A stretch of DNA of 64,000 bases from NCBI GenBank assembly GCA_009729775.1, contig GCA_009729775.1_4081.1; one strand, given 5' to 3'. The notes below the pieces were generated by a model. That model saw only the letters and a list, made by a program, of their open reading frames with translations. It made no database searches and was not told where the DNA came from. Numbering within the stretch: position 1 is the stretch's first letter; each line of letters opens with the position of its first letter. Shown piece by piece: positions 8,601-32,765 of this stretch. This stretch comes from Escherichia coli. Lineage in GTDB: Bacteria > Pseudomonadota > Gammaproteobacteria > Enterobacterales > Enterobacteriaceae. The position numbers were made by a program, and so were the translations under genes.

Positions 8601-11600
8601 AATATGATAGTTCAACTGATAGTTATGTGACAAAATACTATTTCTGGGTACGTGATACAATTTATGTACCACCACTACATACCAGAACAAAATCATGTAC
8701 TGACATTGCTCGTATTATTAAAGATCCAACACAGCTAAACATTCCTTGGTTCGCTCCAATCAATGAAAACTCGTTTATTCTTAGTAATATGCAATTTAAA
8801 GTGAATGATGATACCAGTATTTTAACTGTTTCTTATTACATGGATAGTACTGAAGTTGTTAAACATGACCAGTATCAACTATGTAAAGAAGGTGACAGCT
8901 ATAACTTTAACCCACTAATTTGGGATTCAATGTGGAACTCACTAATTGGTCAAGAAACAACTGAATCAGGTTCTGTGATTAATTTATTATATCCAGATGT
9001 TGATAACGGTTTAGGTTCAAACAAAACTTGGTTCCAAAATGTTATAGAAGCTCGTAGAAACTTTGTAGAAAGTGCTAATAATTATTATAGGTCACAAAAC
9101 ATAACCACTAATAGTGTTGTTATGGAAGATGTGTTTAATGTTAAAACCACTGAAGTTAACCCGAATGAAGTTTCTTTCCGTGTATTGTCTTACAATAATG
9201 AATTAGTTATTGCAGTTGAAAGTGATAAATTTAAAGAAAATGACGCTGTTATTTTAAGTACTAGTGGATATCTACCAAATCCATTAACTTCTAGTGCTGT
9301 TTATTTTATTCACTTCGACGAAAATGGATATATTCAGTTAATGAATAGTCCAGCAAACGCGGGTAGTGTTGTTACTATAACGTTAGAGAACAAAGGTGAG
9401 GGACAACATAAAATGATTAAACAATCTGATTATGTTGAATCACTAGGAACTTCATTGGACATGACTCAGTACTGGTCATATGCTGATTGGTATGATGTTG
9501 GGTATGATAGTAACACGACTTATACTCAAGAGTCAAGCTTAGAAGATGCTAATACTAAAAACTACCAAGTTGGCGATATTATCAGAGTTACCGATAGTGA
9601 AAACATTTGGACATTGTATATTAAATCACAATCACGCGATTCAATTTATTGGAAAGCGATTGGTCGTGAAAACAGTACAGTTGAACTCAATGATATGCTT
9701 TACGCAGATTATAGTGTTCATAATGATAATGGTTCACTAAGCAATCGTGAAATCAACGTTCGTAAAGCACTAGCTTTACTCAAAAATTCTTTCGATTTAC
9801 ATCAAAGCGAAATTGTTTTTGATATGGTCAAATATGTACATGTTGAACAAAGTGTTGTGGATTGGGTATTTAAAACATCATATATCTATATTGTTGGTTT
9901 GGAACAATCATTAGTTCAAAACTATTCAAACGATAATTTGATTAATCAAATTGTTGAATATTTTGAAGAAGTTAAACCTTATAGAACTAAAATTCGTTCA
10001 CAAATAGAGCAAAAGACATCTGATGATGATTTAATAAAAGGTCTATGTAATGATTTAGATCCTAATGGATATATTTTCGTTGACGGTTCTTGGATCAAAA
10101 CTGAAAAAGATATTTGGGATTATGAGTACGCTCAATTTAATGAAATTACCCAAAAATGGGAACAGGTAGGTTCACTACCAAGTGATTTCGTTACACCAAA
10201 TAGAAGATTCCAAGAAATTGATATTATTATGCATTATGATAATATTCAGTGTAAACCAAATGAAGATTTGGCAAGCATAAATGAATTAGTAAGTGTTAAT
10301 AACAAATATCAATCCAATGAAAAGGATGCTGTTAGTAACTATGAATTACAACGTTATATATATTCTTTCCCAGAATATAGTGAAGAAACTTTCGATCTTC
10401 TTATTGCTTATCAAATGCAAATCTACTATCCAGAATTGGATGTAACACTAGGAACAGCATATGGCGTTAACCAGTGGTATAAAGACCATGCGGAAGATTT
10501 AGAAGCAACTGATGAATTTACTGCTACATTGGAGCGTGTTTATAAAGAATCAACGCAGAACGATATGTTTACTGACCTTAGACAATATGTTCAGTATAAC
10601 ACATTGGCAAACCGTTTGAAACTTTATAAAGATATAAGTGATGAGAAAATTCACGATGAAGTTGGTTGTGGATTTAGTGGACTTACCTATAATGACAATC
10701 CTAGTACTAGACTTCCATTAGGCTTTTCTTCTAGTAATGATTATAACTATGGATATTTTGAAATAAGCAGTGAACTGTATCAAAAATATATTTCATTAAT
10801 TAAAGATAAAAATCCTGACGCATCAGACTATGAAGTAAAAGTTAAACTTGAAGTTGAGTATGGTGTATATGTTTATCGTTATGATGAAGTAGGTGGTGAT
10901 ACCCGTTTCTATACTGATGCTATTCACGTATTAGCAGGTATGAGAGGGTTATTCGACAAAGACGCTACTGATAAGTACGAAAAAGCTGAAGAGATTCTTA
11001 GTAAGACCCCAATTGATATCTATGCAATTACAATGATTCCACGAAAATATGTTTACTTAAATGTTAACGGTGTATATCAAAGTATACCTGATGAACAAAG
11101 TATTGATGATTTCATGGAAGATTATTTTATCACAAATGGTGAAATGATTGAACTAGCTGAAATAAATCTAGATGATTTACCACTAGATCAAAATAATCCA
11201 ATGTATTCTGATTATCAATATATACTTGATAGTATTACTGAAGCTAAGTACTTCAATGATATGAATGCATTTGATAACCTAGCATTGGAATCTCAAACTT
11301 CTTCAATAAAATGGGAAGTTAAAGATGATGAAGTTGATCCTTATATTGTGGATATATCTGACATAAACCCTTCTGGGCGTGATGTTGGTCAAATTAGATT
11401 TACAGTTGATGGATATGGGTTTGACAATGTATCTCTTGTACAATTACGTGATAACAGCAGATATCAAACTGAAGGTATGGCAATTATCAATCCATATAAA
11501 CATACAGAAGCAATTGTTAGTATTCCTTCATATGCTAAGATTGAAAATGATATTAATAAAACAACATCGAAGTTTGATGAAAAATATTTCTATCGTGTGA

Positions 11601-15110: not shown

Positions 15111-16604
15111 ATGACATATAGAATGTGGAAAAAAGGGAGAACCAATGATTACAAGTTCATTGATTCTGCCATTGCTGAACAATACAACATTGGTGGAGTT
15201 GACATGTGGCTTTATGCATATGTCGGTCCAAAACAAGTTGCTGACAACACTGACTTATCCTATGGAGGTGATTATACATCTTCAGGATCAGTTGTGTCAA
15301 GTATTGGCGATTTAATTTTTGGTGACACACCAAACAGAAACTACAACCTTGAAGCTATCACACTTAGTTGTGTCTATCAAGTTCAAGAAGCAACTCCAGA
15401 CTTGAAAATCCCAGGATTGTTCTTTAATTTCAACACTATGGACATCACAATCCATTATAATACAATGATGCAGCGTTTAGGTAGAAAAATCATGCCAGGG
15501 GATGTGATAGAACTACCAAATTTACGTGATTTTGATGTATTGGGTAAAGATACAGGTCTAAACCGCTTCTATGTCGTCCAAGATGCATTTCGTACATCTG
15601 AGGGATACTCGGTTACGTGGCAACATCACATTTATAAACTTAGAGTTAAACCGCTAACCGACTCACCTGAGTACTCCGATTTACTCGGTAACAATAATTA
15701 TCCTGATAATCCAGATGACCCTAATAATGGTAATGGAAATACCGATGATGGTTCGTCGGAAAACAGTAACTATGGCAATGAAATGGATATCATGAACCGT
15801 ATCATCATGCAAGCTGATGATGAAGTACCCTATATTCATTATACAAATGAACATTTGTATGATGATCGACCTGATACAGTAGATTTATCAAAATATATGC
15901 TTAACGGTTATGATTTTCCAGAAGAACCTGCCGATGGAATGTATTTTTTGAAAAAAACATACCCAGTACTCAAAGAGTTTGTTAATGATACATGGATTTC
16001 TGTGGAAGTCAAGCGTGGAACCATCTTTCCCAGAAAACCAATGGATGGTGACTTCTTCTTTAAAGAAAATGACGCAGATGTGACAGGTTATACGTTGTAT
16101 CAATATGATAAAAGTGCTAAAAAATGGTTAAATTGTGATGTAGAATATACTACCAGTGATGTTCCACCAGAAGATGTGGAAGATTTTTGTATTTTTTATA
16201 AAGAACCACACATTTATCAGTATAATGATGACAAGTGGGGGGAACCAAAGGTAACTTATGTCAATGAACCATTCACGTCCAATTGTGTATATGGTAATAT
16301 TGATTCGCAACAAGATTATCGTCCTAAAATTCCACCAGCACGAGGTACAGTCCCTGAAGGAAATATGTTCCCAACTGATGCAGTAGATGGTGACTATTTC
16401 TATCGCACCGATTATACTCCAGTTACGTTATGGGAATTCAATGCAACTAAGAATTCATGGGTTATTTTTGATTATGGTGGAAGAAAACCGTGGGAAGGTG
16501 CAGACTTAGCACTTACACAGTTTGTAAATAGTGATAACAAAGTTCCATTACATGACGCAGTTAAACCTAATACTGTTTATCGCATACATAAGGACACAGA
16601 ATGA
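15111..16604 (+). CDS. virion structural protein (neck or baseplate-like?)
   Basis: ORF track starts at TTG 15099; the ATG at 15111 follows GGAGA by 5 nt. Weak by-eye resemblance to T4-type neck proteins; Asp/Asn-rich low-complexity stretch in the middle. Confidence 0.7.
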   Translation: MTYRMWKKGRTNDYKFIDSAIAEQYNIGGVDMWLYAYVGPKQVADNTDLSYGGDYTSSGSVVSSIGDLIFGDTPNRNYNLEAITLSCVYQVQEATPDLKIPGLFFNFNTMDITIHYNTMMQRLGRKIMPGDVIELPNLRDFDVLGKDTGLNRFYVVQDAFRTSEGYSVTWQHHIYKLRVKPLTDSPEYSDLLGNNNYPDNPDDPNNGNGNTDDGSSENSNYGNEMDIMNRIIMQADDEVPYIHYTNEHLYDDRPDTVDLSKYMLNGYDFPEEPADGMYFLKKTYPVLKEFVNDTWISVEVKRGTIFPRKPMDGDFFFKENDADVTGYTLYQYDKSAKKWLNCDVEYTTSDVPPEDVEDFCIFYKEPHIYQYNDDKWGEPKVTYVNEPFTSNCVYGNIDSQQDYRPKIPPARGTVPEGNMFPTDAVDGDYFYRTDYTPVTLWEFNATKNSWVIFDYGGRKPWEGADLALTQFVNSDNKVPLHDAVKPNTVYRIHKDTE

Positions 16605-17944
16605 AAATAGATTATTATTATGACGGTCAATTTCGCAGAGTACTGAAACATCTTATCAGAGTTTTTGGTGAATTTCAAGTACAAAATGGTATTGATGCTA
16701 ATGGAAACCCAAAATACAAAAAGGTTCCATGTCGCTATGCCGATATTTCAAGAATGGCAGCAGCAATTATAAATGGGAATAGTGAAAATGTTCTCCCATC
16801 AGCACCTATAATGACCATAAGTGTTAATCAACTAAAGTTGGATCGTAAAAATATTCGTTCTAATGCCAACGAAACTATAGTAATGGGGTCTAACAAGTCC
16901 CCTGCTATTAATGAGTACACAAAAGATCTTGACACACAATACAAAATTGTAAGACATAACCCAGTACCTTGGACTTTTACGTTTGATTTGAATATTTGGG
17001 TAACTCAAACTCAAACTAAAATGGAATTATTCGAACAAATCTCAACTTTGTTTGCACCTAGTATACAACTTCAATTATCTGATAACCCGTTAGATTGGAC
17101 ATCGCTTAGTGATGTTGAACTAATAGATTGTCAGTTTTCTACTCGTGGTTTTCCACAAGGAACTGACCCAGATTTGGATATAATGGTTTTAACATTTGAA
17201 ACGACAATATGGTTTTCTTTACCAGCTATTGTTGAAAAACCCAAATTAATCCAACAGATTACTACAAATATTAAAGGTGCTCGTGACGAATTTGATTTTG
17301 AAATGGGAAATTATTCAGATATAATAACAGATGTTTTTACACCCAAGAATTTATGCATTAAAGTTGAAGAAATTACTAATTCCAAGTATAATTTACCTGA
17401 TACATACCAACTTACCTTGGTTAGCCAATCGCTATCTGCGGTTTCTCCCAACGGTGGAATATATTCATGGGAAAAATATCTTAAATATCTAGAACCAAAT
17501 TTTGATGACAAAAAAGTAGGGATTAAATTTCAACAATCTATTGAAGAAGACAACCCACTAAAAGGTCATATAGCGTCGTATGGTGAAAATGAAGATGCCA
17601 ACAAAATTATAGTACAGCTTGATAATACCAATTATACTGTTGATTACACTATACATGGGTTTGTGCAGAAAGATTCAGTACTTTCAAGTGCATTACCTGA
17701 ACAATATTATGTAAATAACAGTATACATAACATCATTTATAAAGAAACCGAAATCCCATCAAATTATTTGTTTAAAATTACAAATGACGGTGCACAATTA
17801 ATTGATCCATCTACTGTACGAAATTACATTTATAATAAAGAAGACAATGGTTATTATAGATATAATGACAAATTTAAATGGCATAAAAGTATCATGCCTG
17901 TGTATCGTCAGGGATATTGGAAAATAACTTTCACTGACAAATAA
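16601..17944 (+). CDS. hypothetical virion structural protein
   Basis: ATGA start/stop overlap with the upstream gene (translational coupling), AAGGA SD; 447 aa. Confidence 0.7.
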   Translation: MKIDYYYDGQFRRVLKHLIRVFGEFQVQNGIDANGNPKYKKVPCRYADISRMAAAIINGNSENVLPSAPIMTISVNQLKLDRKNIRSNANETIVMGSNKSPAINEYTKDLDTQYKIVRHNPVPWTFTFDLNIWVTQTQTKMELFEQISTLFAPSIQLQLSDNPLDWTSLSDVELIDCQFSTRGFPQGTDPDLDIMVLTFETTIWFSLPAIVEKPKLIQQITTNIKGARDEFDFEMGNYSDIITDVFTPKNLCIKVEEITNSKYNLPDTYQLTLVSQSLSAVSPNGGIYSWEKYLKYLEPNFDDKKVGIKFQQSIEEDNPLKGHIASYGENEDANKIIVQLDNTNYTVDYTIHGFVQKDSVLSSALPEQYYVNNSIHNIIYKETEIPSNYLFKITNDGAQLIDPSTVRNYIYNKEDNGYYRYNDKFKWHKSIMPVYRQGYWKITFTDK

Positions 17945-17957
17945 AGGAGGTGTTGTT

Positions 17958-18422
17958 ATGAATGAAGCGGTTGGTGCTATATTTTTATCAAAAAGTACTG
18001 GACATATGATGTTAAACTTGCGTTCTGAAAGAAGTACCTATTCTAACAACTGGGCATTTGTTGGTGGAAAGCTTGAACATAACGAAACACCACTACAAGG
18101 TCTGATGCGAGAAATTAAAGAAGAGTTGGGCAACTCAATACCTAACATTATTGATATTATACCGTTTGATGTATTTTGTACAAAAAATGGTAAATTTAAA
18201 TATTATTCATTTGTTATTGTAGTTGAGAATGAATTTGTACCAACTTTAAATCATGAAAGCTCTGGTTATGCTTGGGTTAGAATTGGTTCTTGGCCTAAAC
18301 CATTACACCCTGGTGCTAAAAATACTTTACTTAACACAAACTTAATGAAAGATTTTTACTCACTATGGGAAAGTATACGTGAAGGTACACAGTTTGTCAA
18401 CAGTTTACCATATAGATATTAA
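17958..18422 (+). CDS. Nudix hydrolase
   Basis: Nudix box GGKLEHNETPLQGLMREIKEELG (Gx5Ex7REUxEExGU); AAGGAGG SD. Confidence 0.75.
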   Translation: MNEAVGAIFLSKSTGHMMLNLRSERSTYSNNWAFVGGKLEHNETPLQGLMREIKEELGNSIPNIIDIIPFDVFCTKNGKFKYYSFVIVVENEFVPTLNHESSGYAWVRIGSWPKPLHPGAKNTLLNTNLMKDFYSLWESIREGTQFVNSLPYRY

Positions 18423-20680: not shown

Positions 20681-20790
20681 TGTTTAAGCCCTTTTAGTAG
20701 TGAACTTTCATTTATTTATTAATGATAACGAAATGTATTTTGTACTGATAAATATTGGTATATGACATTAACTCATACAAGGGAAATATT

Positions 20791-21906
20791 ATGACAATTT
20801 CATTTAATGGTTCATGTAATAACTCCGGCATCAAAAGTCTAGTTATTAATGGTGCTGGGCATTTAATTGTAACCTATGCAGATAACACAATTCAAGATTT
20901 AGGTCTTGTTGTAGGACAGAATGGCGAGAATGGTAAAAACTTTTATCCTAATGAGATTGGTTTTGAAATTCCTTCCGAACAATTTAAAGTTGGTGAACCA
21001 CTTGGGTGGTGCTACTTAAGCTTGGCTAACAATACCAGTACTCTATACTTTAAATCAAATGATGCACAAGATCCGACAAGTACATGGATTAGTGTTGAGT
21101 TTGGTAAAGGTGATACGGGTGAAGCGGGTAAGCCGTTCCACATTGATAGTGCTGGAACCACTTTCCCAACAACTGGTCTTTTTAATAACTATACATTTTA
21201 TAATACTCAAGATGGTAAACTTTATTTCTATCAAAGTGTAACTGCTACTTGGAGTGATGGTATACCTTTCCGTGGTGAACAAGGTCCGCGTGGTCGTTTC
21301 CATATTGATAGCAGTGGTGATCAATTTCCAAGTATTGAAAATCTTCCAGTTGATTATTGTTTTTATAACAACACTGATGGAAAACTATATTATGTTGATG
21401 AAGTAACTACAACTACCCCTCCTTCAAAAGAGTGGAGTGATGGTATTCTATTCCGTGGTAAAGAAGGTCAGCAAGGTATTCAAGGTATACAAGGCGAACC
21501 AGGTGCACCAGGTAAAGATACAATTTCTATTAGAAATACCATAGATAGCTCATGGACTAACGCACTATTAGTTATTGGTACATGTCCTGCTGGATATGTA
21601 GTTTCTAATATTGATGTAAACGTTATACAACCTTATTCTCTTCCAGTAACTGATATGTTTGTACGTTTTGGTGGTGAAGCACAAGAAGATATTGGCGGGA
21701 CGGTAATTGCACCAACTTCCTACTTTGATATCAATCGTCAGATGCGTTTTATTGTTAATGAAACTAATCATGCAGCATCCGATGTTGATGAAATTATTTC
21801 ATGTGTATTCAACGATTCTGTTAACAACAGTCCTTATGGAAAAATGGAAATTATTTGTACTCTTTCATGGCAAGCTCCTATCCAACCGATTCAAGATAAT
21901 ATTTAA
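20791..21906 (+). CDS. tail fibre protein with short collagen-like Gly-X-Y stretches
   Basis: ORF track start 20755; the ATG at 20791 follows AAGGGA. Internal duplicated module (FHIDSAGTTFP... / FHIDSSGDQFP...) each ending in Gly-X-Y triplets (GEQGPRGR; GKEGQQGIQGIQGEPGAPGKD). Confidence 0.7.
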   Translation: MTISFNGSCNNSGIKSLVINGAGHLIVTYADNTIQDLGLVVGQNGENGKNFYPNEIGFEIPSEQFKVGEPLGWCYLSLANNTSTLYFKSNDAQDPTSTWISVEFGKGDTGEAGKPFHIDSAGTTFPTTGLFNNYTFYNTQDGKLYFYQSVTATWSDGIPFRGEQGPRGRFHIDSSGDQFPSIENLPVDYCFYNNTDGKLYYVDEVTTTTPPSKEWSDGILFRGKEGQQGIQGIQGEPGAPGKDTISIRNTIDSSWTNALLVIGTCPAGYVVSNIDVNVIQPYSLPVTDMFVRFGGEAQEDIGGTVIAPTSYFDINRQMRFIVNETNHAASDVDEIISCVFNDSVNNSPYGKMEIICTLSWQAPIQPIQDNI

Positions 21907-21920
21907 GGGAGGATGTCATA

Positions 21921-24062
21921 ATGGCAGTATTTTCTAATTTTGAAGGAACTATGCAGCCCAAATTCATATTGGGGAAAAAAGGTGCTTCAATAAATTTTAT
22001 CAATGATTCAGTTTCTATAAAAGATTATCTAGGAGAACAGTTCCTACCACTGAAGGTAGGAACTTCATCTGACCCTAATTCAGCAGTTAACGTAAAATAT
22101 CTTGAAGATAACCCTAATGCATTATTTGGTGTTGTACCCCCTACCGATGATGTAGGAAAGAACAATAATACGTATTTTCAAATTGATGAAGATGGTATTG
22201 TTGATATTTTTGCAAAAAGTAATGGTACATGGGTAAAATCATTATACATTAATAAAAAAGTTCTATCCAGTAAAAATGGTGGCGATTTCATCGGACTTAT
22301 TACTGGAGGTACAGTTCAACAGGCCCAGTTTTATATAACACCAGAAGAATTTGGTGCTAAAGGTGATGGCGAAACTGATGACACTGCTGCTGTAAATTTA
22401 TGTGCTGCTTATGCTAAAGAAAATAAAATCCAAATTCAGGCTGGTGGTAATTACCGTATCAAAACTGCAATATACCTAGAAGATGTAACTTGGTTTGGGG
22501 GAACTATTACTGGTAACGGTGGTACTATGGTATCTGTTATTAATTCCCAAATACAATTTGCAACACTTACTGGATGTTATTTAAAATTCTTCGGTGGCGA
22601 TGGTAAGTTTTATTTTAATAAATTTATAAACATCACAAGTACTGCTGCATTTTTAATGCAAGGTATGACACAACCAGGAACAATAGATTTTTGCTTTAAT
22701 GAAATGACCCAATGTAAGTATGGTGTTCTTCAACAAGGTACTGGTGAGAAAATGAAGGTTGGTAGATATTCATATAACCATATTCATGATATCTATGGTG
22801 ATGCAATTGAACTAAACGTAATTAACTCACATTATCCTGATGGTTTTGTGATTGAAGGAAACGTAATTGAAAACGTTGATGGTTCTAACGCTCCAATCCC
22901 ACTTTCAAACTGGGGCATTGGTATTGGCGTTGCTGGTTCTGGTCCTTATGGTTTAGATGCACCAGATACACAATATGTCAGAAACTTTGTTATTAAAAAT
23001 AACAGACTATATAATGTTAGACAATGTATACACGTTGAATTAGGAATGGACTTTAAAATACTTAATAATGAAGTTTATCCATCATCTTTAGTTTCTGTTG
23101 GTACTGGATTAACCACTGCTGGTGTTATAACTTATGGTTCGAAAGAATTCATTATTGATGGGTTGACTGGTCATTTGCTTAATGATCCTTCTATCACAAA
23201 TAGAATGGTTTCAATAAACTGGGGTGTAACTTCTGGTCGTTTTGCTGGACCACCTAGAAACTTTAAAATTTCTAATCTCTATATTCCAGAGTCTTCTATA
23301 CTTGTTTATACTTCCGGTTCTGATAATTGGTTAAATAATACAGAATTGAGCAATATCACTTGTTCTAAAATCCTTTGGCGTGGTTTGCCATCATCATCTA
23401 AATTTAGTGATATTAGAACTAAAGAATTAGATGTAATTGGTCAACACCTCTCTACCGAAGGCGAAGGTGGTGGTATCTATACTCGCTCTAAATATACTTA
23501 TACTAATTGGACTAACTGTGTTGTTCAAGATGATTGTAATGTTTCAAAATATAGTTTTTCTAAAATGTATGTAGACAGAATAGACCAATCATCTAATAAC
23601 TTTAAAGTTACAACTGCAATCGATGGTACAGGTCACCGTGGCCCAGTACTGATACCTGTAGTTGAGCAATATTATATTCCATACGATACTTTTCCTGGGG
23701 GACGCTATTTCTCTGAAGGCACGATTATTCATAAACAATCGGGTGGAAAATATATTGTAACTGTTGGTGGTTCTTTTTTCGGAAAATATGACACAATTAG
23801 ACAAACGGTAGCAGGACAAACATACATAGAAGCATTGGGTGTGTCATGGGGTGAAAACCAATATGCAAAAGCTGCTGGTACTGAGATCATTATATCCGGT
23901 GCTGGTGAAAATGGTGGTGATTTGAGAACGTATATAACTCGTGCAGTGTATGTTGTAAACAACGTATATAGAATTGATATTGCAGATCCTATCATAACAG
24001 CAACTGCCGCTGGTGCAGCATTAAAAGCTGCCCAACCCGTAACTTACATAACCCTACCATAA
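21921..24062 (+). CDS. tailspike with pectate-lyase-type beta-helix (putative polysaccharide depolymerase)
   Basis: Motif PEEFGAKGDGETDDTAAVNLCAAYA, typical of the pectate lyase 3 / tailspike beta-helix start; AAGGGAGG SD. The N-terminal ~45 aa are paralogous to the next gene. Confidence 0.75.
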   Translation: MAVFSNFEGTMQPKFILGKKGASINFINDSVSIKDYLGEQFLPLKVGTSSDPNSAVNVKYLEDNPNALFGVVPPTDDVGKNNNTYFQIDEDGIVDIFAKSNGTWVKSLYINKKVLSSKNGGDFIGLITGGTVQQAQFYITPEEFGAKGDGETDDTAAVNLCAAYAKENKIQIQAGGNYRIKTAIYLEDVTWFGGTITGNGGTMVSVINSQIQFATLTGCYLKFFGGDGKFYFNKFINITSTAAFLMQGMTQPGTIDFCFNEMTQCKYGVLQQGTGEKMKVGRYSYNHIHDIYGDAIELNVINSHYPDGFVIEGNVIENVDGSNAPIPLSNWGIGIGVAGSGPYGLDAPDTQYVRNFVIKNNRLYNVRQCIHVELGMDFKILNNEVYPSSLVSVGTGLTTAGVITYGSKEFIIDGLTGHLLNDPSITNRMVSINWGVTSGRFAGPPRNFKISNLYIPESSILVYTSGSDNWLNNTELSNITCSKILWRGLPSSSKFSDIRTKELDVIGQHLSTEGEGGGIYTRSKYTYTNWTNCVVQDDCNVSKYSFSKMYVDRIDQSSNNFKVTTAIDGTGHRGPVLIPVVEQYYIPYDTFPGGRYFSEGTIIHKQSGGKYIVTVGGSFFGKYDTIRQTVAGQTYIEALGVSWGENQYAKAAGTEIIISGAGENGGDLRTYITRAVYVVNNVYRIDIADPIITATAAGAALKAAQPVTYITLP

Positions 24063-24078
24063 AGGAGATTATATTAAA

Positions 24079-24975
24079 ATGGCAGTTTTTTCTAATTTAG
24101 AAGGAACCATGAAGAAGTCCTTCATTCTTGGGAAGAATGGTGCACAGATTACCACAAATGGTAGTGTTGTGCAAATTCAAAACTACTCAGGGACACAACT
24201 TCTTCCAATTTCAGCAGGTGAACCAACTGCAAACACACACTTGGTTACATTGGGATATTTAAACGCACACAGTGGTGGTGGTAGTTCTGGTATCTTACGT
24301 GGAACAACAGCACCATCCGATTCGATCGGTCTAGATGGTGACGTTTACTTTTTGGTTGATAGTACTAATGTTCTTCAAATTTATATTAAAGACCTTGGTA
24401 TTTGGAAACCATTTAAAGGTAGCTCACCTGGGACTGATAGCTCATATGTAACTACTGAAATAGTTCCTGTTTCTGCATTTACATTAGTACCAGATACTAC
24501 TGATCATTATACTTACACACTACCAGAATCAGTTCATGGTAGAGGTTCTGATATTATGATCCAACTACAAGGTGACCCAGGTAATGTTGCATTGGAATCA
24601 GTATTCCAAACCACAGTAACAGTTAGTGGTATTGGGGATATAACAATTGATGTGATTGGTCAAATCACAGATTATGCAAGTGTTAAAGTAAACATTATAG
24701 GAGCAACAACAATGACAGTACCTTATAGTAAATTGGTAAACCAAGCAGATTGGGTTTCTAGTGCTGGTGATTTTACAATCACTATTCCTGCATCTGAACA
24801 CAATCAAACACCAGATAATTTGTATATTTCAATTTATGCAAATAAAACACCTGGGAGTGTTGCGTCATCTCCATTTGAATTGGTAGTGACTGATACACAA
24901 ATTAGTAGTACTGGTGATGTAATCTTCACTTCTGATATTTCTTTCAGTGGTAAGATTGTCATCTCTGGTAAGTAA
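24079..24975 (+). CDS. tail fibre/spike protein sharing the N-terminal anchor domain with the depolymerase
   Basis: MAVFSNLEGTMKKSFILGKNG... is near-identical to the N-terminus of the 21921 gene; AAGGAGA SD. Confidence 0.7.
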   Translation: MAVFSNLEGTMKKSFILGKNGAQITTNGSVVQIQNYSGTQLLPISAGEPTANTHLVTLGYLNAHSGGGSSGILRGTTAPSDSIGLDGDVYFLVDSTNVLQIYIKDLGIWKPFKGSSPGTDSSYVTTEIVPVSAFTLVPDTTDHYTYTLPESVHGRGSDIMIQLQGDPGNVALESVFQTTVTVSGIGDITIDVIGQITDYASVKVNIIGATTMTVPYSKLVNQADWVSSAGDFTITIPASEHNQTPDNLYISIYANKTPGSVASSPFELVVTDTQISSTGDVIFTSDISFSGKIVISGK

Positions 24976-24982
24976 AAAATTA

Positions 24983-25016
24983 ACCAGACTTGTTCTAAAT
25001 AAGTCTGGTTTTTTAT
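24983..25016 (+). terminator. intrinsic terminator
   Basis: AACCAGACTT ... AAGTCTGGTT stem followed by T6. Confidence 0.55.
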
Positions 25017-25112
25017 TATATTTGCTTTTGTCAAATAACATATTAATTGTTGGATAACAGCATAATAAAACTAAATATATACATATTAACAAGGTTATAA
25101 TGGAGGGTATAA

Positions 25113-28100
25113 ATGTACTCAATAAAAACTGACTTAGATATTACTGGTGCTGGTACGGTTGGTAAGGATCTTTTAGTCAAAGGAAATGCTGTTTTCAACA
25201 ATAACCTAACTGTAAATGGTACTGTAACTTTTGCAAATGCAACTTTTACTGCCATTGAATCATCAACTGCCAATATTACATCTACTTTAGATGTAGGTGG
25301 CAAAGCAACACTTTCTGGTGGTCTTGGTGTTGAGGGTAATACTACAATCGGTAGTGCAGTGGTCGGGTCTGATACAGCAACAATTAATTCAAACGCTACC
25401 TTTAACGGTACTGTATCAGTTGGTTCTGATTTTACACAAACTGCTGGTACAACCACTCTACAAGCAACTAAAGTTAAAAACTTAGAAGTTGCTGAAACAA
25501 CAGCATTTAAAGGTAATATTACTGCTGATGTTGGGACTACTGCTGCATTTGATAAAGTTACTGCTAATACCGCAGAAATTACTAATGTAAGTACAACAGA
25601 TATTAGTAGTACTGGTACTGCTACATTTAAAGATGTGACAATTAGTGGTACACTTGGTGGTGAGTTTAATCTATCTGACTTAAATGCAGTAACATTGAAC
25701 GTTACTGGTGCATCTAACCAACAAGGTGCAGTAACTTTCGGTGCTAACGTAACTGGTATTAACAGTACTGCTACTTTTAAAGACATTCGTATTGGTTCTA
25801 ACTCTGAATCACAAACCTTCAGATTAAGCTTCCCTTACACTGCTCCTGGTAAACGCCCAACTGTTATTCTACAAAACGAAATTCAGTCCGAGCTAATGTC
25901 ACCTGCAAACTTGACAGTATTGACCTCTGCTTCTTTTGGTAATGCGTCATTATCTTCTTATGGTATTACTGGTAATGGTCTAAACAAATTAGATTATCTA
26001 ACAGTTTCTGGTAACAATACACAATCACCAGACACACCACTATTAGAAGTTCAAAAAGGCAAAACTAAAGTTGCGGACTTTGAAGTAACCGGAACTGCAA
26101 CTATTCCAAATATCGAAAGTACTGGTACTGCTAATTTTAATAACATTAATGTTTCTGGTCTTCTTGGTGGAACGTTCCAACTAGACGATATCAATGCAGT
26201 ATCTTTGAACGTTACTGGTGTAACTTCATTAGTTGGTGGTGTTACTCTTGGTTCTAATATTACTGGTTATAACAGTACTGCATCCTTTAAAGCTATCAGC
26301 TTAGGTCAAAATAGTCAAGATGCGGCAGTGAAACTAGGTTTTGGATATACTGCACCAGGTCAACGCCCAACAGTTATTCTACCTAACGAAGTTCAATCAG
26401 AAGTCGTTTCTCCTTCTACATTGAACGTTCTTAAAACAGCAACTTTCGGTAACGCTTCTCTTTCCACTTATGGTATTACTGGTAACGGTCTAAACAAACT
26501 AGATTACCTAACTATTACTGGTAACGAAACACAAGCTCCAGGTACACCATTCCTACAAGTTGGTGGTAAAGCAATTCTTAATGATGTTGAATTTACTGGA
26601 ACAGTAACTGGACTAACTGTTGATGTTAGTGGTCAGGATCTAACACCTAATTCTGTTGTCGCGGCAGCAAATATTAAAGGTGCAACACTTGAAAGTACTG
26701 GTAACACTACCGTGGGTGCTAAACTAACTGTTACTGGTGATATTGCTGGTACAACTGCAACTCTTTCTGGTGCATTATCCGCTGGTTCAGTAAGTTCTGG
26801 TTCTATTACTGGTACAACTTCTGTATCTGCACCAACAATTAGTGCATCTACTGAAGTAACGGCTCCTACTATCACTGCGAGTGGAACTGTAAGTGGACAA
26901 ACAATTAACGGTACTAATATTAGTGCAACAACTCTGACTGCACCAACTATTAGTGGTAATACTAACTTCACAGAAAATGTTGATATTACTGGAAATCTAA
27001 CAGTTACTGGTACAGTAACCCCAGGTACAATTGATTTGAGTACTACTGATGTTAGTGCGAAATCAATCACTACTACCGCTGGTGCAAATATTGGTGGAGA
27101 TCTTGTGGTTCAAGGTTCTTTTGATTTATCAGCAGCAGACATTAACGTTAAATCACTAACTTCTTCTGGTATTGTTAAAAGTAATGACCTTGTTAATGCT
27201 AACGTACTTCCTGTACTTAATAGTACTACCATAACGGCAACTACTGTTAATGCTGATGATATAACTGTTACCGGATCTGCTAATTTGGGTACAATTTACT
27301 CAAGCTCATCTGTTCTAGTTGGGTCAACTTTAACTGTAACTGGTGAAACTACAACTGCATCGTTGGTTACCCCAACCATTTCAAATGCAAGTGGTGTCAC
27401 TATTTCCAATAATACAAATGTAACTGGTGACCTAACCGTTACTGGTGCAGTTATTCCAGGCTCTATCGATCTAGCAACAACTGATGTTAATGCTAAATCC
27501 ATTACTACTACTTCTGGTGCAACTATTGGTGGTAACCTAACTGTTAATGGTACAGTAGATCTTACTACTGCTGATGTTACTGTCAAATCTTTAACTAGTT
27601 CTGGTGCAATTGTTAGTAATGAATCTACAATTAGTAGTGTTCTACCTAAACTTCAAAGTACTGATGCAACTATTGCAACCCTTGGTTCAACAACTGCAAA
27701 TATTACTAATTTGAATGTTACTGGTGCATCTACCGTAGCTGACGTAACTTCTTCAGGTAAAGTTAAAGCAGTTTCTGTAGAAACCCCAACAATTAGTAAC
27801 GTTGATGGTGTATCTATTTCCAATAATACATCTATTACTGGTGACCTAACAGTTTCTGGTACAGTAACACCAGGTGCAATTGATTTGAGCACAACTGATG
27901 TAAGTGCAAAATCCATTACTACTACCGCTGGAGCAAATATTGGTGGAGATCTTGTTGTTTCTGGTACAGTTGATTTAAGTGGTGCTGATGTATCTGTTAA
28001 ATCTCTAACAAGTACTGGTATTATTACAGTTAGTAGTGCAGAAGGTATCAACGTTCTACCTAAAGTTCAAAGTACTGAAGTTACAGTGTCTGCTCTAAAT

Positions 28101-30992
28101 GCAACAAATGCAGTAGTTTCTGGTGATGTTTCAGCAGCAACAGCTTCAATCTCAGGTGCAATTACTGGTGGGTCAGCAACACTATCTGGTGTTGGAACTG
28201 CTCTAAATGTAACTAATAACGCAACTGTTGGTGGTGTACTTACTGTTGGTTCTATTACTTCAGCGGCAGAAAATGTATCCATTACTAAAAATACCGCGAT
28301 TACTGGTAATTTAGCAGTATCTGGAACACTAACTGCGGGTGTTATTGATCTTAGCACAACTGATGTGTCTGTGAAGACATTAACTTCGCTAGGTGATGCA
28401 ACCGTTCAAGGTAACTTAACTGTTGATGGTTCTATTGACCTAAGTTCTGCAAACATCGTCGGTGTAACACTAGAAAGTACTGGCTCTACCACTGTAGGTA
28501 CTGATTTGATTCTAACTACAGGTAACATTACAGGTAGTCCATCTATTTCTGGTAACTTGGGTGTAACTGGAACCACAACGTTAACTGGTGCAACTACAGT
28601 TTCAAATACATTGAATACTGCTGGTAAACTAACAGTTAATACTGGTGGTATTCAAGTAGTTGGTGGTGGTATCCAAGTTGATGCAGGAACTATTACCGCA
28701 CCAAGTGCTAATATTTCTGGTGACTCTACCCTTAATAGTGCAACTGTAACTACTACCCTTGGTGTTACTGGTGCAGCTAGTATGAATGGTGGCCTTACTG
28801 CATCTACCCTAGATGTAACTGGTGACAGTACTGTACAAAAACTAACTGTTAAGGGTGCATTTATTCCTGAAGGTGGTTTGGACCTATCTGGTGCTGATCT
28901 TAACGTGAATAGCGTATCTGCTGCAACCACATTAAGTGTTACTGGTGCTAGTACTCTAACTGGTGGCGTTTCCACTTCAACTGTTACTGCATCCGGTAAG
29001 GTAACCGCACAAGAATTAAGTACTGGTACATTGGCAGTAACCACAAATGGAACAGTTGGTGGTACTTTAGATGTAACTGGAAAGGCAACAGTCGGTTCTC
29101 TTGATTCAGGTGCAATATCTGCAACTTCTGGTACATTTAGTACTACACTAGGTGTAACTGGTGTAGCAACATTTGGTAACAATGTTAATATTACTGGCAC
29201 GTTAACTCCAGGTGCATTGGATTTATCTAGTACTGATGTAGATGCTAACAGTCTTTCTGTTGCAACAACCCTACATTCAAACGGCAATGCAACAATTGGT
29301 GGTACACTAGGTGTAACAGGTGCAGCAACTGCTCCATCAATAGCTCTTAATGGTGAAGGAACTGCATTAGCAGTTACTAACAATGCAACAATTGGTGGCA
29401 CACTAGGTGTAACTGGAAAGGCAACAGTCGGTTCACTAGATTCAGGTGCGGTATCTGCAACTTCTGGTACATTTAGTACTACAATAGATGTAACAGGTGT
29501 AGCAACCTTTGGGAATAATGTTAACATTACTGGTACATTAACTCCAGGTGCATTGGATTTATCTAGTACTGATGTTGTTGCAAACAGTCTTTCTGTTGCA
29601 ACCACACTACATTCAGATGGTAATGCAACAATTGGTGGTACATTAGGTGTAACTGGTGCAGCAACTGCTCCATCAATCACTCTTAATGGTGAAGGAACTG
29701 CATTAGCAGTTACTAACAATGCAACAATTGGTGGTACACTAGGTGTAACTGGTGCAGCAACTTTAGGTTCACTAACAACTTCTGGTGCAGTGAAAACTGG
29801 TTCTAATGTTATTATTGGTACTAAGATCGGTGAACAACCAGAAACAGTTCAGATTTTCCCTAACACTTACATCGCAGGTTCCTTGCGTGTAGACGGTGGT
29901 ATCAACGCTGATATCGATGTTAGTGGTCAAACGATCGAACCATATGCGGTTGTTGCTGCTGATACTATTAGTGCAGCAGGTAATATCACATCTGGTGCAG
30001 AATTGATTTCTAAATCTGCAACTATTGGTGATGTTGGTTCACAAAACAACAACTTAACCATCAATGGTAACGTAGTTAACAATGGTAACTTTACAGTAAC
30101 GGGTGTTCTAAACGCAACGCTAAACCAAGCTAACTCTGATGTGGCTGTTAAATCTTTAACTGCAACTAACAGTGTTGCTGCTGGTACTAGTATTACCGCA
30201 GGAACAAGCATTACTGCAACTGGTTTACTAAAAGGTAACACTCTTGAAGTAACCACTACTGGTTCATTCGGTGGTGCAGTTACTATGTCAAGTGGTGCGA
30301 ATATCACAGGAACTGTTGGTATTACTTCTGGTAACCTAACTGTCGGTGGTGATATTTCTGCAACTGGTACTGCTACCCTTGCTGCTACTTCTGTGACTAC
30401 AATTACTACTTCTGGTGCTGCTACTCTTGCTAGTGCATCTGTAACTGGTGCAGCAACCGTAGGTGGTACTTTAACTGTTACTGGTTTAATGACTGCAAAT
30501 GGTAGTGTTGTTCTAGGTGACGCTGCTGCTGATACATTAACTGTCAATGCAACATCTTCTTTCAAAGAAAATGCAGTATTTGATAAAGATGTAACTGTAA
30601 CTGGTCAATTAACAACTACTAATGCTGACCTAACTACTACAACAGTAACTACTAAAAAATATGATGTTATTCCTAATCAAGTAACTTCTTCTGTTATCGC
30701 ACCAACTGGTACTTGGACCCCAGACGGTACTAGCAACGTATACTTTATCACTCTAGATCAAGATACAACTCTAGCACCAATCACTGGTCTAATCGGGGGT
30801 GGTAAAGCATCTTCAGTATACATTTATGTTAAACAAGATGCAACAGGTAATAGAAACTTTACTACTGATGGTACTTATGCGGTTGTTGATGGTACACTGA
30901 ACAAAACTGCAAACTCTGTAACTATCTACCAAGTCATTTATGACGGTGTGAGTCCAGTAACAGATATGTTTATTGCACAACGTACTGCTTAA
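25113..30992 (+). CDS. giant repetitive tail fibre protein (1959 aa, Thr/Gly/Val/Ser-rich beta-repeat)
   Basis: GGAGGG SD. Multiple internal repeat families, including four ~65-aa modules (xTGDLTVTG...IDLSTTDVSAKSITTT...) and a near-identical tandem 112-aa duplication. Confidence 0.85.
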   Translation: MYSIKTDLDITGAGTVGKDLLVKGNAVFNNNLTVNGTVTFANATFTAIESSTANITSTLDVGGKATLSGGLGVEGNTTIGSAVVGSDTATINSNATFNGTVSVGSDFTQTAGTTTLQATKVKNLEVAETTAFKGNITADVGTTAAFDKVTANTAEITNVSTTDISSTGTATFKDVTISGTLGGEFNLSDLNAVTLNVTGASNQQGAVTFGANVTGINSTATFKDIRIGSNSESQTFRLSFPYTAPGKRPTVILQNEIQSELMSPANLTVLTSASFGNASLSSYGITGNGLNKLDYLTVSGNNTQSPDTPLLEVQKGKTKVADFEVTGTATIPNIESTGTANFNNINVSGLLGGTFQLDDINAVSLNVTGVTSLVGGVTLGSNITGYNSTASFKAISLGQNSQDAAVKLGFGYTAPGQRPTVILPNEVQSEVVSPSTLNVLKTATFGNASLSTYGITGNGLNKLDYLTITGNETQAPGTPFLQVGGKAILNDVEFTGTVTGLTVDVSGQDLTPNSVVAAANIKGATLESTGNTTVGAKLTVTGDIAGTTATLSGALSAGSVSSGSITGTTSVSAPTISASTEVTAPTITASGTVSGQTINGTNISATTLTAPTISGNTNFTENVDITGNLTVTGTVTPGTIDLSTTDVSAKSITTTAGANIGGDLVVQGSFDLSAADINVKSLTSSGIVKSNDLVNANVLPVLNSTTITATTVNADDITVTGSANLGTIYSSSSVLVGSTLTVTGETTTASLVTPTISNASGVTISNNTNVTGDLTVTGAVIPGSIDLATTDVNAKSITTTSGATIGGNLTVNGTVDLTTADVTVKSLTSSGAIVSNESTISSVLPKLQSTDATIATLGSTTANITNLNVTGASTVADVTSSGKVKAVSVETPTISNVDGVSISNNTSITGDLTVSGTVTPGAIDLSTTDVSAKSITTTAGANIGGDLVVSGTVDLSGADVSVKSLTSTGIITVSSAEGINVLPKVQSTEVTVSALNATNAVVSGDVSAATASISGAITGGSATLSGVGTALNVTNNATVGGVLTVGSITSAAENVSITKNTAITGNLAVSGTLTAGVIDLSTTDVSVKTLTSLGDATVQGNLTVDGSIDLSSANIVGVTLESTGSTTVGTDLILTTGNITGSPSISGNLGVTGTTTLTGATTVSNTLNTAGKLTVNTGGIQVVGGGIQVDAGTITAPSANISGDSTLNSATVTTTLGVTGAASMNGGLTASTLDVTGDSTVQKLTVKGAFIPEGGLDLSGADLNVNSVSAATTLSVTGASTLTGGVSTSTVTASGKVTAQELSTGTLAVTTNGTVGGTLDVTGKATVGSLDSGAISATSGTFSTTLGVTGVATFGNNVNITGTLTPGALDLSSTDVDANSLSVATTLHSNGNATIGGTLGVTGAATAPSIALNGEGTALAVTNNATIGGTLGVTGKATVGSLDSGAVSATSGTFSTTIDVTGVATFGNNVNITGTLTPGALDLSSTDVVANSLSVATTLHSDGNATIGGTLGVTGAATAPSITLNGEGTALAVTNNATIGGTLGVTGAATLGSLTTSGAVKTGSNVIIGTKIGEQPETVQIFPNTYIAGSLRVDGGINADIDVSGQTIEPYAVVAADTISAAGNITSGAELISKSATIGDVGSQNNNLTINGNVVNNGNFTVTGVLNATLNQANSDVAVKSLTATNSVAAGTSITAGTSITATGLLKGNTLEVTTTGSFGGAVTMSSGANITGTVGITSGNLTVGGDISATGTATLAATSVTTITTSGAATLASASVTGAATVGGTLTVTGLMTANGSVVLGDAAADTLTVNATSSFKENAVFDKDVTVTGQLTTTNADLTTTTVTTKKYDVIPNQVTSSVIAPTGTWTPDGTSNVYFITLDQDTTLAPITGLIGGGKASSVYIYVKQDATGNRNFTTDGTYAVVDGTLNKTANSVTIYQVIYDGVSPVTDMFIAQRTA
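29076..29747 (+). repeat. near-identical tandem duplication (2 x 336 bp) inside the fibre gene
   Basis: Two consecutive in-frame 112-aa units (KATVGSLDSGA...NATIGGTLGVTG) differing at only a few positions; period 336 bp. Confidence 0.8.
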
Positions 30993-31843: not shown

Positions 31844-31867
31844 GGTCAACACTAGTTGGCCTTTTTT
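31844..31867 (+). terminator. intrinsic terminator
   Basis: GGTCAAC-acta-GTTGGCC (one G-U wobble) followed by T6. Confidence 0.5.
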
Positions 31868-31889
31868 GCTTCATTATAAGGAAAAATAT

Positions 31890-32765
31890 ATGTATAATAT
31901 AAGAACAGATATTATTGTAAATGGTGATATCAGTTATGACGGCGAACTAATAGGCAAAATACCAGTACCAGATATTAGTACAAAAAATAAAAATATTTTA
32001 ATTCATGAAAATGATGGTTTATATGTTCCAGATAACACTATTAATTATCAAGGTGGAACTGGTATATCAATAACCTCTAATTTAATATCAACAAAAATAA
32101 GCACAACTCCCGGCAATAGTTTAACATCTGATAGTACTGGATTATTTGTACCTAGTAGTTCATCTTCATATACTGCTGGTAATGGAATATCGATTAACAG
32201 TAATGTGATTTCATCTAAAATAAGTAATACATCTGGTAATATATTAACATCTGATAGTACTGGGCTGTTTGTTAATGGCACTAATACTACTAATTTAGTT
32301 CGTAGAAAAAGAGAACTATATTATTCAAACTTAAATATACAATTTACTGATGGTATTGAACAAAATTTAATTCAAATACTCAAGTCATTGACACCAACAA
32401 GCGGAACACTAGATACATTCTTTAACACTACTAGTAATAAACTAAATGTTTATAATTTTAACTCATCACTCAACTTTAAATTGAATATATATGGAACATG
32501 GACGACAAGTTCATCTAATATGAGTTTTGCTATAAATTTTACAAATACACAATTTAATAATATTAATCAAGTTAGAACACCAACTATTACTGTTGATACT
32601 ATATCATTTAATACATTTTTAAGTGTTGATGAAAATGGTAACCTAGTAACTAATGGAACACCTATTACGTTAATGTCACATGGTGGCAAGTTTACAGTTA
32701 CTAATTTATTATTAATTGCTGAGCAAATCGTTCCACCTTCAATGAGTGGGGTTTCTGTAGTTTAA
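31890..32765 (+). CDS. fibre-like protein with tandem internal repeats
   Basis: ORF track start is TTG 31866; the ATG at 31890 follows AAGGA. Repeated unit G(T/N)GISI(T/N)SN(L/V)IS(T/S)KIS(T/N)T(P/S)GN...LTSDSTGLFV occurs twice. Confidence 0.7.
   Translation: MYNIRTDIIVNGDISYDGELIGKIPVPDISTKNKNILIHENDGLYVPDNTINYQGGTGISITSNLISTKISTTPGNSLTSDSTGLFVPSSSSSYTAGNGISINSNVISSKISNTSGNILTSDSTGLFVNGTNTTNLVRRKRELYYSNLNIQFTDGIEQNLIQILKSLTPTSGTLDTFFNTTSNKLNVYNFNSSLNFKLNIYGTWTTSSSNMSFAINFTNTQFNNINQVRTPTITVDTISFNTFLSVDENGNLVTNGTPITLMSHGGKFTVTNLLLIAEQIVPPSMSGVSVV

Follow-up and report, generated by a model that had tools for sequence, protein, structure and literature searches.

The DNA analyzed here, a window of 64,000 nucleotides, belongs to an Asteriusvirus jumbo coliphage and is 99.9% identical to PBECO4 and CRJP21 and 99.8% identical to 121Q. 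Two open reading frames encoding proteins of 713 and 298 aa were found exactly where the original prediction had placed them. We refer to these as genes A and B and list them below with their parts and neighbors.

20791..21906, plus strand: upstream "tail protein" gene, 371 aa if read from the ATG of the 121Q gp574 annotation (phrog_13565 "tail protein", E = 2e-220)
21921..24062, plus strand: gene A, putative colanidase-type tailspike, 713 aa (phrog_6117, E = 3e-264; 6e0v, E = 1.8e-235; WcaM, E = 2e-26)
21921..22115, plus strand: A residues 1-65, N-terminal module (MAVFSNFEGTMQPKFILGKKGA...), putative docking part (module profile HMM, E = 4e-25)
22116..22244, plus strand: A residues 66-108, one copy of a widespread fiber repeat unit (repeat HMM, residues ~66-104, E = 8e-15)
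22206..24059, plus strand: A residues 96-713, neck, beta-helix catalytic body and C-terminal domain, by homology to phi92 gp150 (alignment 96-712)
24079..24975, plus strand: gene B, virion structural protein conserved in RaK2-like jumbo phages, 298 aa (phrog_10468, E = 5.5e-100)
24079..24273, plus strand: B residues 1-65, N-terminal module, a paralogue of the A module (module profile HMM, E = 3e-31)
24274..24414, plus strand: B residues 66-112, one copy of the fiber repeat unit (repeat HMM, E = 7e-27)
24415..24972, plus strand: B residues 113-298, C-terminal part rich in beta-strands, interpreted as a pair of beta-sandwich (Ig-like) domains
24982..25010, plus strand: intrinsic-terminator-like hairpin 7 nt past the B stop codon, with a T run after its 13-bp stem

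The hairpin after B suggests that the tail protein gene, A and B are transcribed as a unit, apart from the long fiber gene that starts at 25113. A promoter scan was uninformative (22 sites vs. 20.9 expected). The tail protein gene lies directly upstream of an N-module gene in 121Q, RaK2, CBB, JP4, JNE01, and A4, and the order of tail protein followed by one or two N-module genes was kept in all six phages examined; among these, only Asteriusvirus genomes have two copies. The tail protein itself contains a collagen-like stretch (a weak Collagen match), and its orthologues phAPEC6 gp253 and CBB CBB_228 have been found in virions. A PDB search with the 371-aa protein gave no significant match. 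The mechanically called open reading frame for this gene begins earlier, at a TTG at position 20755.

Comparison of A with B by BLASTP returned a single significant alignment, located at the N-termini (38% identity, E = 1e-19), and tblastn with the first 110/115 residues gave 37.6% identity across 109 columns (E = 7e-21). When the alignment was divided for shuffle tests, residues 1-22 were 77% identical (z = 18.8), residues 23-66 were 27% identical (z = 8.6), and residues 67-108 were 29% identical (z = 11.8). The shared N-terminus that had been predicted is therefore real, but it is longer than the ~45 residues claimed, extending from residue 1 to ~108. Past residue ~112 the two proteins resembled each other no more than shuffled sequence (z = 0.3), which bears out the prediction that their remainders are unrelated. 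The same N-terminal element is carried by two putatively virion-associated proteins of one genome. The suggested search for more genes with this N-terminus yielded no third copy in Asteriusvirus genomes, the search having covered the window, the first 99 kb of PBECO4 (by HMM) and three tblastn queries of Asteriusvirus records. Neither tblastn nor the module profile HMM detected further copies in the 64-kb window, and the three tblastn queries placed the element at no more than two positions per Asteriusvirus record. An origin of the A N-domain by recent tandem duplication of B was rejected (bootstrap of 0.01 for the grouping of A with Asteriusvirus B); the alternative grouping of the A N-domain with metagenomic spikes was weakly supported, with a bootstrap of 0.27.

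The shared N-domain consists of two parts. One, the module, takes up the first ~65 residues and shows the pattern MA(V/I)FSN.EGTM...LGK.G, in which the first ~20 residues are near-invariant, and the second part is a single ~45-residue copy of a fiber repeat (G..G..Y...D....I...K..G.W) that is present in 2-15 copies in long fiber proteins. The ~65-residue module had no Pfam or PDB match, including in a PDB profile search with the N-domain, and neither a T4 gp10-like branching domain nor a known anchor fold was detected. PF27114 ("Phage_tail_beta") appears in the precomputed annotations of two metagenomic spikes and is recorded on no B orthologue; we suspect that it covers the region after the module and not the module itself.

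An exhaustive profile search of representative sequences located the module strictly at position 1 of each of its carriers, including at least five other architectures in metagenomic phages. The bodies joined to it were pectate-lyase-like with an S74 chaperone, Beta_helix, BNR propeller fibers of 1204-1366 aa, and several proteins of ~270-300 aa. These architectures were revealed by the exhaustive search, whereas a word-indexed search with the N-domain profile had returned 8 short proteins only; a related-locus search with a narrower module alignment recovered mostly B orthologues. One contig (L009) from an Asteriusvirus relative (NrdD 73% identical) carries the module on two different beta-helix spikes, and another (L029) holds a further module-bearing spike. 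Conversely, the body of A is attached to an unrelated N-terminus of 188 aa in gp032 of the phi92-like phage muut. Across phages, then, the module is joined to different bodies and the colanidase body to different N-termini, supporting the prediction of a modular, separable N-terminus.

The N-domain can also stand alone, as in the 115-aa protein RaK2 gp474, and such an N-domain-only protein of 115 aa is retained in both RaK2 and K64-1. In phage JP4, the module of A has outlasted the in-frame loss of residues 152-659, and each Asteriusvirus lineage examined has a recognizable, intact A module (57-100% identity). The module changes faster than the catalytic body (67.5% vs. 88.8%, window vs. JNE01), which is unusual for an anchor.

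The body of A has a well-characterized relative. With phmmer against the PDB, A residues 96-712 aligned to residues 11-623 of 6e0v_A, the crystal structure of phi92 gp150, so that homology to a solved and characterized enzyme spans the whole catalytic body. The same body is 57% identical to muut gp032 residues 189-801, the protein also matches the host protein WcaM, and A is annotated as functioning in colanic acid degradation in PBECO4/121Q. A Pfam match to the pectate-lyase-like family PF12708 fell under the cut-off (24.3 vs. 27 bits). We infer a right-handed parallel beta-helix fold for A from its high identity to the crystallized protein, and the predicted identity of A as a beta-helix-type polysaccharide depolymerase tailspike is supported by this alignment. 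According to a report cited in PMC13450770, phi92 gp150 cleaves the beta-1,4 Glc-Fuc bond of colanic acid (Xu et al. 2025). By homology, colanic acid is the predicted substrate of A as well. The phi92-like homologues of A are located in tail-fiber clusters, and a more distant relative of the body (28% identity), GAP32_128, is encoded at another locus without the module. The JNE01 counterpart of A is annotated as two split open reading frames. By their position between gp253 and gp256, A and B are absent from the phAPEC6 virion mass-spectrometry table, in which gp253 and gp256 are both present.

Gene B has 73 homologues, and 71 of the aligned orthologues are full-length (284-309 aa). Domain replacement was seen in none of these orthologues, which span the whole RaK2-like clade and whose phages infect Escherichia, Cronobacter, Yersinia, Erwinia, and Salmonella. 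Their N-domains are 64-68% identical vs. 45-50% for the rest of the protein, and residues 1-20 make up the most conserved block, as might be expected of an anchor. The B orthologue CBB_227 (53% identical to B) was detected in CBB virions with 5 peptides and 32% coverage (PMC5259590), which identifies the B family as a virion component, while B was not detected in phAPEC6. In RaK2 and K64-1, the C-terminal part of B has been deleted altogether. We modeled B as a monomer with AlphaFold2 using a 76-sequence alignment, as single-sequence input gave a pLDDT of 33. The model places strands at residues 72-75, 89-93, 98-105, and 108-112 in the fiber repeat region, and residues 113-298 may correspond to a pair of beta-sandwich (Ig-like) domains. 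The monomer is disordered at residues 1-8, as a docking peptide would be expected to be. A Foldseek search of the PDB found nothing significant. The original prediction had described B as a second fiber, but its family shows neither a variable, host-specific distal domain nor an elongated fiber or spike fold: the orthologues are full-length without domain replacement, and the model consists of beta-sandwich domains. B is an ordinary member of a virion structural protein family, PHROG 10468. Within this family, which includes CBB_227, GAP32_221, and 121Q gp572, it is a full-length member that differs in nothing notable; its neighbor A alone is lineage-specific.

Phi92 gp150 (PDB 6e0v/6e0w; PHROG 6117) and its Justusliebigvirus orthologues, such as muut gp032, are the closest known counterparts of A, with a homologous neck, beta-helix body and C-terminal domain over ~617 residues, the same PHROG and the same relationship to host WcaM. 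The attachment region differs, being 188 unrelated residues in muut gp032 and a RaK2-clade domain of ~95-108 residues in A. The phage background differs as well, since A is encoded by a ~350-kb jumbo phage, whereas the counterpart comes from a ~148-kb myophage. Systems with multiple receptor-binding proteins (RBPs), namely K1-5/SP6, the KP32/KP34 groups, CBA120 TSP1-4, and RaK2/K64-1 gp526-534 (reviewed by Latka et al. 2019, PMC6872550, and Noreika et al. 2023, PMC10253068), likewise have a conserved N-terminal element on different virion proteins, recombined with different enzymatic bodies. Truncated genes that keep only the module persist here (RaK2 gp474, JP4), as Latka et al. 2019 proposed for truncated second RBPs (PMC6872550). 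Unlike in those systems, however, the other carrier of the element here is not a second depolymerase but B, which is conserved and non-enzymatic, and the branching domain or anchor fold of such systems has no detectable equivalent. The A/B locus is also separate from the RaK2 gp526-534 fiber cluster, and attachment at this locus is presumed. The literature searched contained no structural or biochemical data on an element that attaches these proteins to the baseplate, an adaptor or another RBP.

Taken together, we think it reasonably probable that A is a virion tailspike that would hydrolyze colanic acid, which E. coli and related bacteria produce as a slime exopolysaccharide, that B is a small, conserved structural component at the tail or baseplate periphery, and that their common two-part N-domain serves for docking. 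The most likely role of this domain would be to dock both proteins, with trimer formation presumed, on a conserved site of the baseplate or fiber network, and the upstream 371-aa tail protein is the first candidate for the docking partner. If A and B used one site, they would compete for it. Across the RaK2-like jumbo phages as a whole, B may be the carrier that is ancestral and constitutive. For Asteriusvirus, the E. coli lineage, a phi92-like colanidase body may have been fused at ~residue 96-105 to a second, paralogous module; the resulting gene A lies directly upstream of B.

The N-domain might instead be a trimerization or folding nucleus, or an assembly-chaperone tag, and not a virion-binding surface, with attachment through another part of each protein or no attachment at all. 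We regard this as unlikely, since the ~65-aa module stands strictly at position 1 of bodies that have trimerizing folds of their own (beta-helices and S74 chaperone domains), since RaK2 and K64-1 keep the N-domain without any body, and since the extreme conservation of residues 1-20 fits a common partner better than self-association. A less probable proposal still is that A is a soluble enzyme freed at lysis, clearing colanic acid for the progeny, its N-terminus being a functionless leftover of fusion with a copy of the neighboring gene. The absence of A from the phAPEC6 virion proteome table, the viability of JP4 after loss of most of the A body and the annotation of the JNE01 gene as two open reading frames would all fit such an enzyme. 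Against this stand the tail-fiber location of the homologous phi92-like proteins, the intact A module in every Asteriusvirus lineage examined, even after the JP4 deletion, and the failure of the phylogeny to support a recent local duplication from B.

The full model of the original prediction, in which A and B are two true RBPs providing two receptor specificities through one adaptor, appears to us very improbable. It accounts for the common N-domain, for the position of both genes in the tail-fiber region in apparently one transcription unit, and for the Ig-like domains of B, which could bind carbohydrate. However, the C-terminal part of B is maintained at full length and 45-50% identity across at least five host genera, which is the opposite of what a host-range determinant would show, its outright loss in RaK2 and K64-1 argues in the same direction, and across the window, the 99 kb of PBECO4 and the Asteriusvirus records searched, a single enzymatic protein per genome bears the module. 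Nor does the multi-capsule host range that had been predicted follow from the data, because the substrate assigned to A by homology is a common enterobacterial exopolysaccharide and not a serotype capsule. As a general barrier, and not a serotype determinant, colanic acid leaves host range unexplained by this finding alone. We conclude that one N-terminal module has been put to use on different proteins here, as is ordinary for phages, and that this does not prove a multi-capsule host range.

The colanidase tailspike and structural protein reading, with docking through the common N-domain, is one more specific instance of the known principle that phages assemble adsorption devices from exchangeable N-terminal anchors and C-terminal enzymes, and it draws attention to a domain family without a name in current Pfam and PHROG annotation. 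Several testable points follow for RaK2-like jumbo phages, which are poorly understood: the splice at ~residue 96-105, the sharing of a presumed docking site by B and the 371-aa tail protein as partner. The junction in A could also serve for grafting other depolymerases onto Asteriusvirus phages. More speculatively, and with greater doubt than for the core reading, the module may be an undescribed but widespread docking plug for one conserved socket on jumbo-phage baseplates and in some unrelated phages, with B as the constitutive occupant, depolymerase spikes as facultative ones, and module-only proteins (RaK2 gp474, JP4 gp667) as caps or placeholders. In that case, the re-targeting of jumbo phages would have a natural splice point at residue ~100.

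The 3,055-bp region that holds the two genes under study, A and B, matches ~350-kb jumbo myophages of Escherichia that belong to Asteriusvirus, a genus of the "RaK2-like" clade: PBECO4 and CRJP21 at 99.9% identity, and 121Q, G17, and Sharanji at 99.8%. Both open reading frames lie where they had been placed, and in the records of these phages A is labeled "colanic acid degradation" (121Q gp573) and B "virion structural protein" (gp572).

20791-21906, plus strand: "tail protein" gene, 371 aa
21921-24062, plus strand: A, 713 aa
24079-24975, plus strand: B, 298 aa
24982-25010, plus strand: strong terminator-like hairpin (13-bp stem and T run), immediately after B

The hairpin stands between these three genes and the long-fiber gene and, together with the 16-nt gap between A and B, suggests that the tail protein gene is transcribed together with A and B as a single unit.

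When A was compared with B by BLASTP, only the N-termini aligned significantly, in one alignment (E 1e-19), and tblastn with the first 110/115 residues gave 37.6% identity across 109 columns (E 7e-21). The original prediction of a shared N-terminus was borne out, whereas its limit of ~45 residues was not, as residues 1-22 (77% identical, z 18.8), 23-66 (27%, z 8.6), and 67-108 (29%, z 11.8) were each significant in shuffle tests. Beyond the shared region, the remainders showed no similarity above shuffles (z 0.3), and neither tblastn nor a profile HMM found a further copy of the shared N-terminus in the 64-kb window.

The homology break in A falls at residue ~96. Residues 96-712 can be aligned along their whole length with the crystallized phi92 gp150 (PDB 6e0v/6e0w; E 1.8e-235), an enzyme that reportedly cleaves colanic acid at its beta-1,4 glucose-fucose linkage (Xu et al. 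2025, as cited in PMC13450770). The body is 57% identical to its orthologue in the phi92-like phage muut, A is a member of PHROG 6117 (E 3e-264), and host WcaM, from the colanic-acid gene cluster, is distantly related (E 2e-26); the Pfam pectate-lyase-like match was below threshold. By homology, and given the reported gp150 activity, the earlier designation of A as a depolymerase tailspike is well supported.

A profile of the shared N-domain was searched exhaustively against 1.84 billion representative proteins; the 336 hits divided the domain in two. Positions 1 to ~66, hereafter the module, matched only extreme N-termini, on proteins with very different remainders.

Proteins carrying the module
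723 aa: colanidase variant
780 aa: pectate-lyase-like protein with an S74 chaperone domain
705 aa: Beta_helix protein
1204-1366 aa: BNR-propeller fibers, six clusters
270-300 aa: several proteins
99 aa: one protein

Positions ~66-114 are a single copy of a repeat, G..G..Y...D...I...K..G.W, that occurs in 2-15 copies inside long fiber and collagen-like proteins. No sequence match covering the module was found in Pfam-A, NCBIfam, or the PDB; the sole match was a weak one to PHROG 4302 ("unknown function"), at that family's own N-terminus. We found no resemblance of the N-domain to a known anchor fold.

B had been taken for a second fiber; the alignments show that it is not a variable one. Of 73 homologues, 71 full-length orthologues were aligned, all 284-309 aa long and 41-85% identical over full length; they derive from metagenomes and from jumbo phages that infect Escherichia, Cronobacter, Yersinia, Erwinia, or Salmonella. 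Conservation is highest in the N-domain (mean identity 64-68%), and the remainder is 45-50% conserved and never replaced. Since the CBB orthologue, CBB_227, was also found in virions by mass spectrometry (PMC5259590), we conclude that B is a conserved structural protein. In an AlphaFold2 model of B (76 sequences, pLDDT 84.6), the N-domain is rich in beta-strand and its tip (residues 1-8) is disordered; residues 124-297, also beta-rich and confidently modeled, we read as two putative beta-sandwich domains.

The gene order of 121Q and CBB runs from ClpA-like, structural, gp15-like, and MutT genes through three reverse genes to the "tail protein," followed by one or two module genes, the long fiber, a DUF4376 protein, a structural gene, and thyA. 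JP4, JNE01, and A4, whose loci are shorter, agree with it over the stretch that starts with the structural/gp15-like genes and ends with the long fiber gene. RaK2 keeps it as far as its single module gene, after which an unrelated 510-aa hypothetical gene replaces the long fiber and DUF4376 genes. Because two module genes occur only in Asteriusvirus genomes, and in all other genera the B orthologue is the single one, A is a lineage-specific addition beside a core gene. A recent local duplication as the source of A's module appears unlikely, since a rough bootstrapped neighbor-joining analysis of the 66-residue module supported an A-type clade (0.83) and an Asteriusvirus B clade (0.76) and grouped A with B at 0.01. 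Between the window and JNE01, A's module has diverged faster than its body (67.5% vs. 88.8% identity). The JNE01 colanidase (L005, 6001-8143) is annotated as two overlapping ORFs of 141 and 588 aa; the gene is frameshifted or a pseudogene, unless the split comes from a sequencing error.

That the module is swappable, as originally proposed, is supported by its presence on diverse bodies and by muut, in which the colanidase body sits behind an unrelated 188-aa N-terminus; a 28%-identical relative at another locus, in GAP32, also lacks the module. A relative of Asteriusvirus (L009, Logan SRR18476386_53; NrdD 73% and NrdG 80% identical) encodes two different module-bearing spikes (8001-10343 and 16571-18343) on either side of a three-gene block homologous to PBECO4 gp071-073, and a further 684-aa carrier (L029, 1172-3226) has the same position. 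In these uncultivated relatives, beta-helix spikes with the module adjoin nrdG; the nrdG/gp071-073 region is a second insertion site for such spikes. Both L009 spikes have a precomputed PF27114 ("Phage_tail_beta") match. Two further loci (L012 and L013) carry the module within tail-fiber clusters otherwise unrelated to those of the window phage. RaK2 and K64-1 retain a 115-aa gene for the N-domain alone; this gene (RaK2 gp474, L002 9001-9348; same position in K64-1) is the Alcyoneusvirus B orthologue cut down to its N-domain, and its product may be a placeholder or docking-site cap. In JP4, the A gene (L004, 6001-6606) has lost residues 152-659 in frame and encodes 201 aa, in which the N-domain and the C-terminal 54 residues remain; a protein of the same length under an E. 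coli assembly (P0002) matches A's N-domain at 100% identity.

It is well established that receptor-binding proteins can share N-terminal anchors or peptides, that these recombine with a variety of depolymerase bodies, and that truncated "placeholder" genes persist, as in the KP32/KP34 groups, K1-5, CBA120, and the RaK2/K64-1 fiber cluster (PMC6872550, PMC10253068). The A/B pair resembles these in having an N-terminal element common to different proteins; the literature searched held no published description of the pair or of the module. Best supported is a model in which the N-domain would tether A and B to a conserved site of the baseplate or fiber network, with the probably co-transcribed, virion-detected tail protein as the first candidate partner. 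Alternatively, the N-domain may be a folding or trimerization nucleus, or A may be a soluble enzyme; by position, both A and B are absent from the phAPEC6 virion proteome table.

The long tail-fiber gene (25113-30992, plus strand; 1959 aa, many internal repeats) measures 5,880 bp in the window and 5,526 bp in 121Q, and the PBECO4 record opens inside it; long minus-strand ORFs over it (e.g., 25043-25786) are probably artifacts of repetitive composition. A 3,333-aa (382 kDa) virion protein gene (2675-12676, plus strand) directly follows a gp6-like baseplate wedge gene; its phAPEC6 counterpart, gp245, was detected by mass spectrometry, and the records seen give no function. Between the DUF4376 gene and a 654-aa structural gene, a 299-aa ORF (31866-32765, plus strand) encodes an Sf6-type tail-needle-knob domain (PF16532, E 2.9e-28). 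This slot is empty in 121Q, SHEFM2K, G17, phAPEC6, and SP27 and holds a longer, 455-aa version in PBECO4, CRJP21, and UB (86-89% DNA identity). Being present or absent and variable in length, this gene seems a likelier candidate than B for a real determinant of host range.

The multi-receptor or multi-capsule host range originally proposed is unsupported, because the genome has one enzymatic carrier (in the window, the first 99 kb of PBECO4, and tblastn of Asteriusvirus records), its substrate is by homology a general exopolysaccharide, and the second carrier is not variable. A would strip colanic acid so that the phage reaches its real receptor, and the JP4 deletion form provides a natural control for the contribution of the enzyme body.
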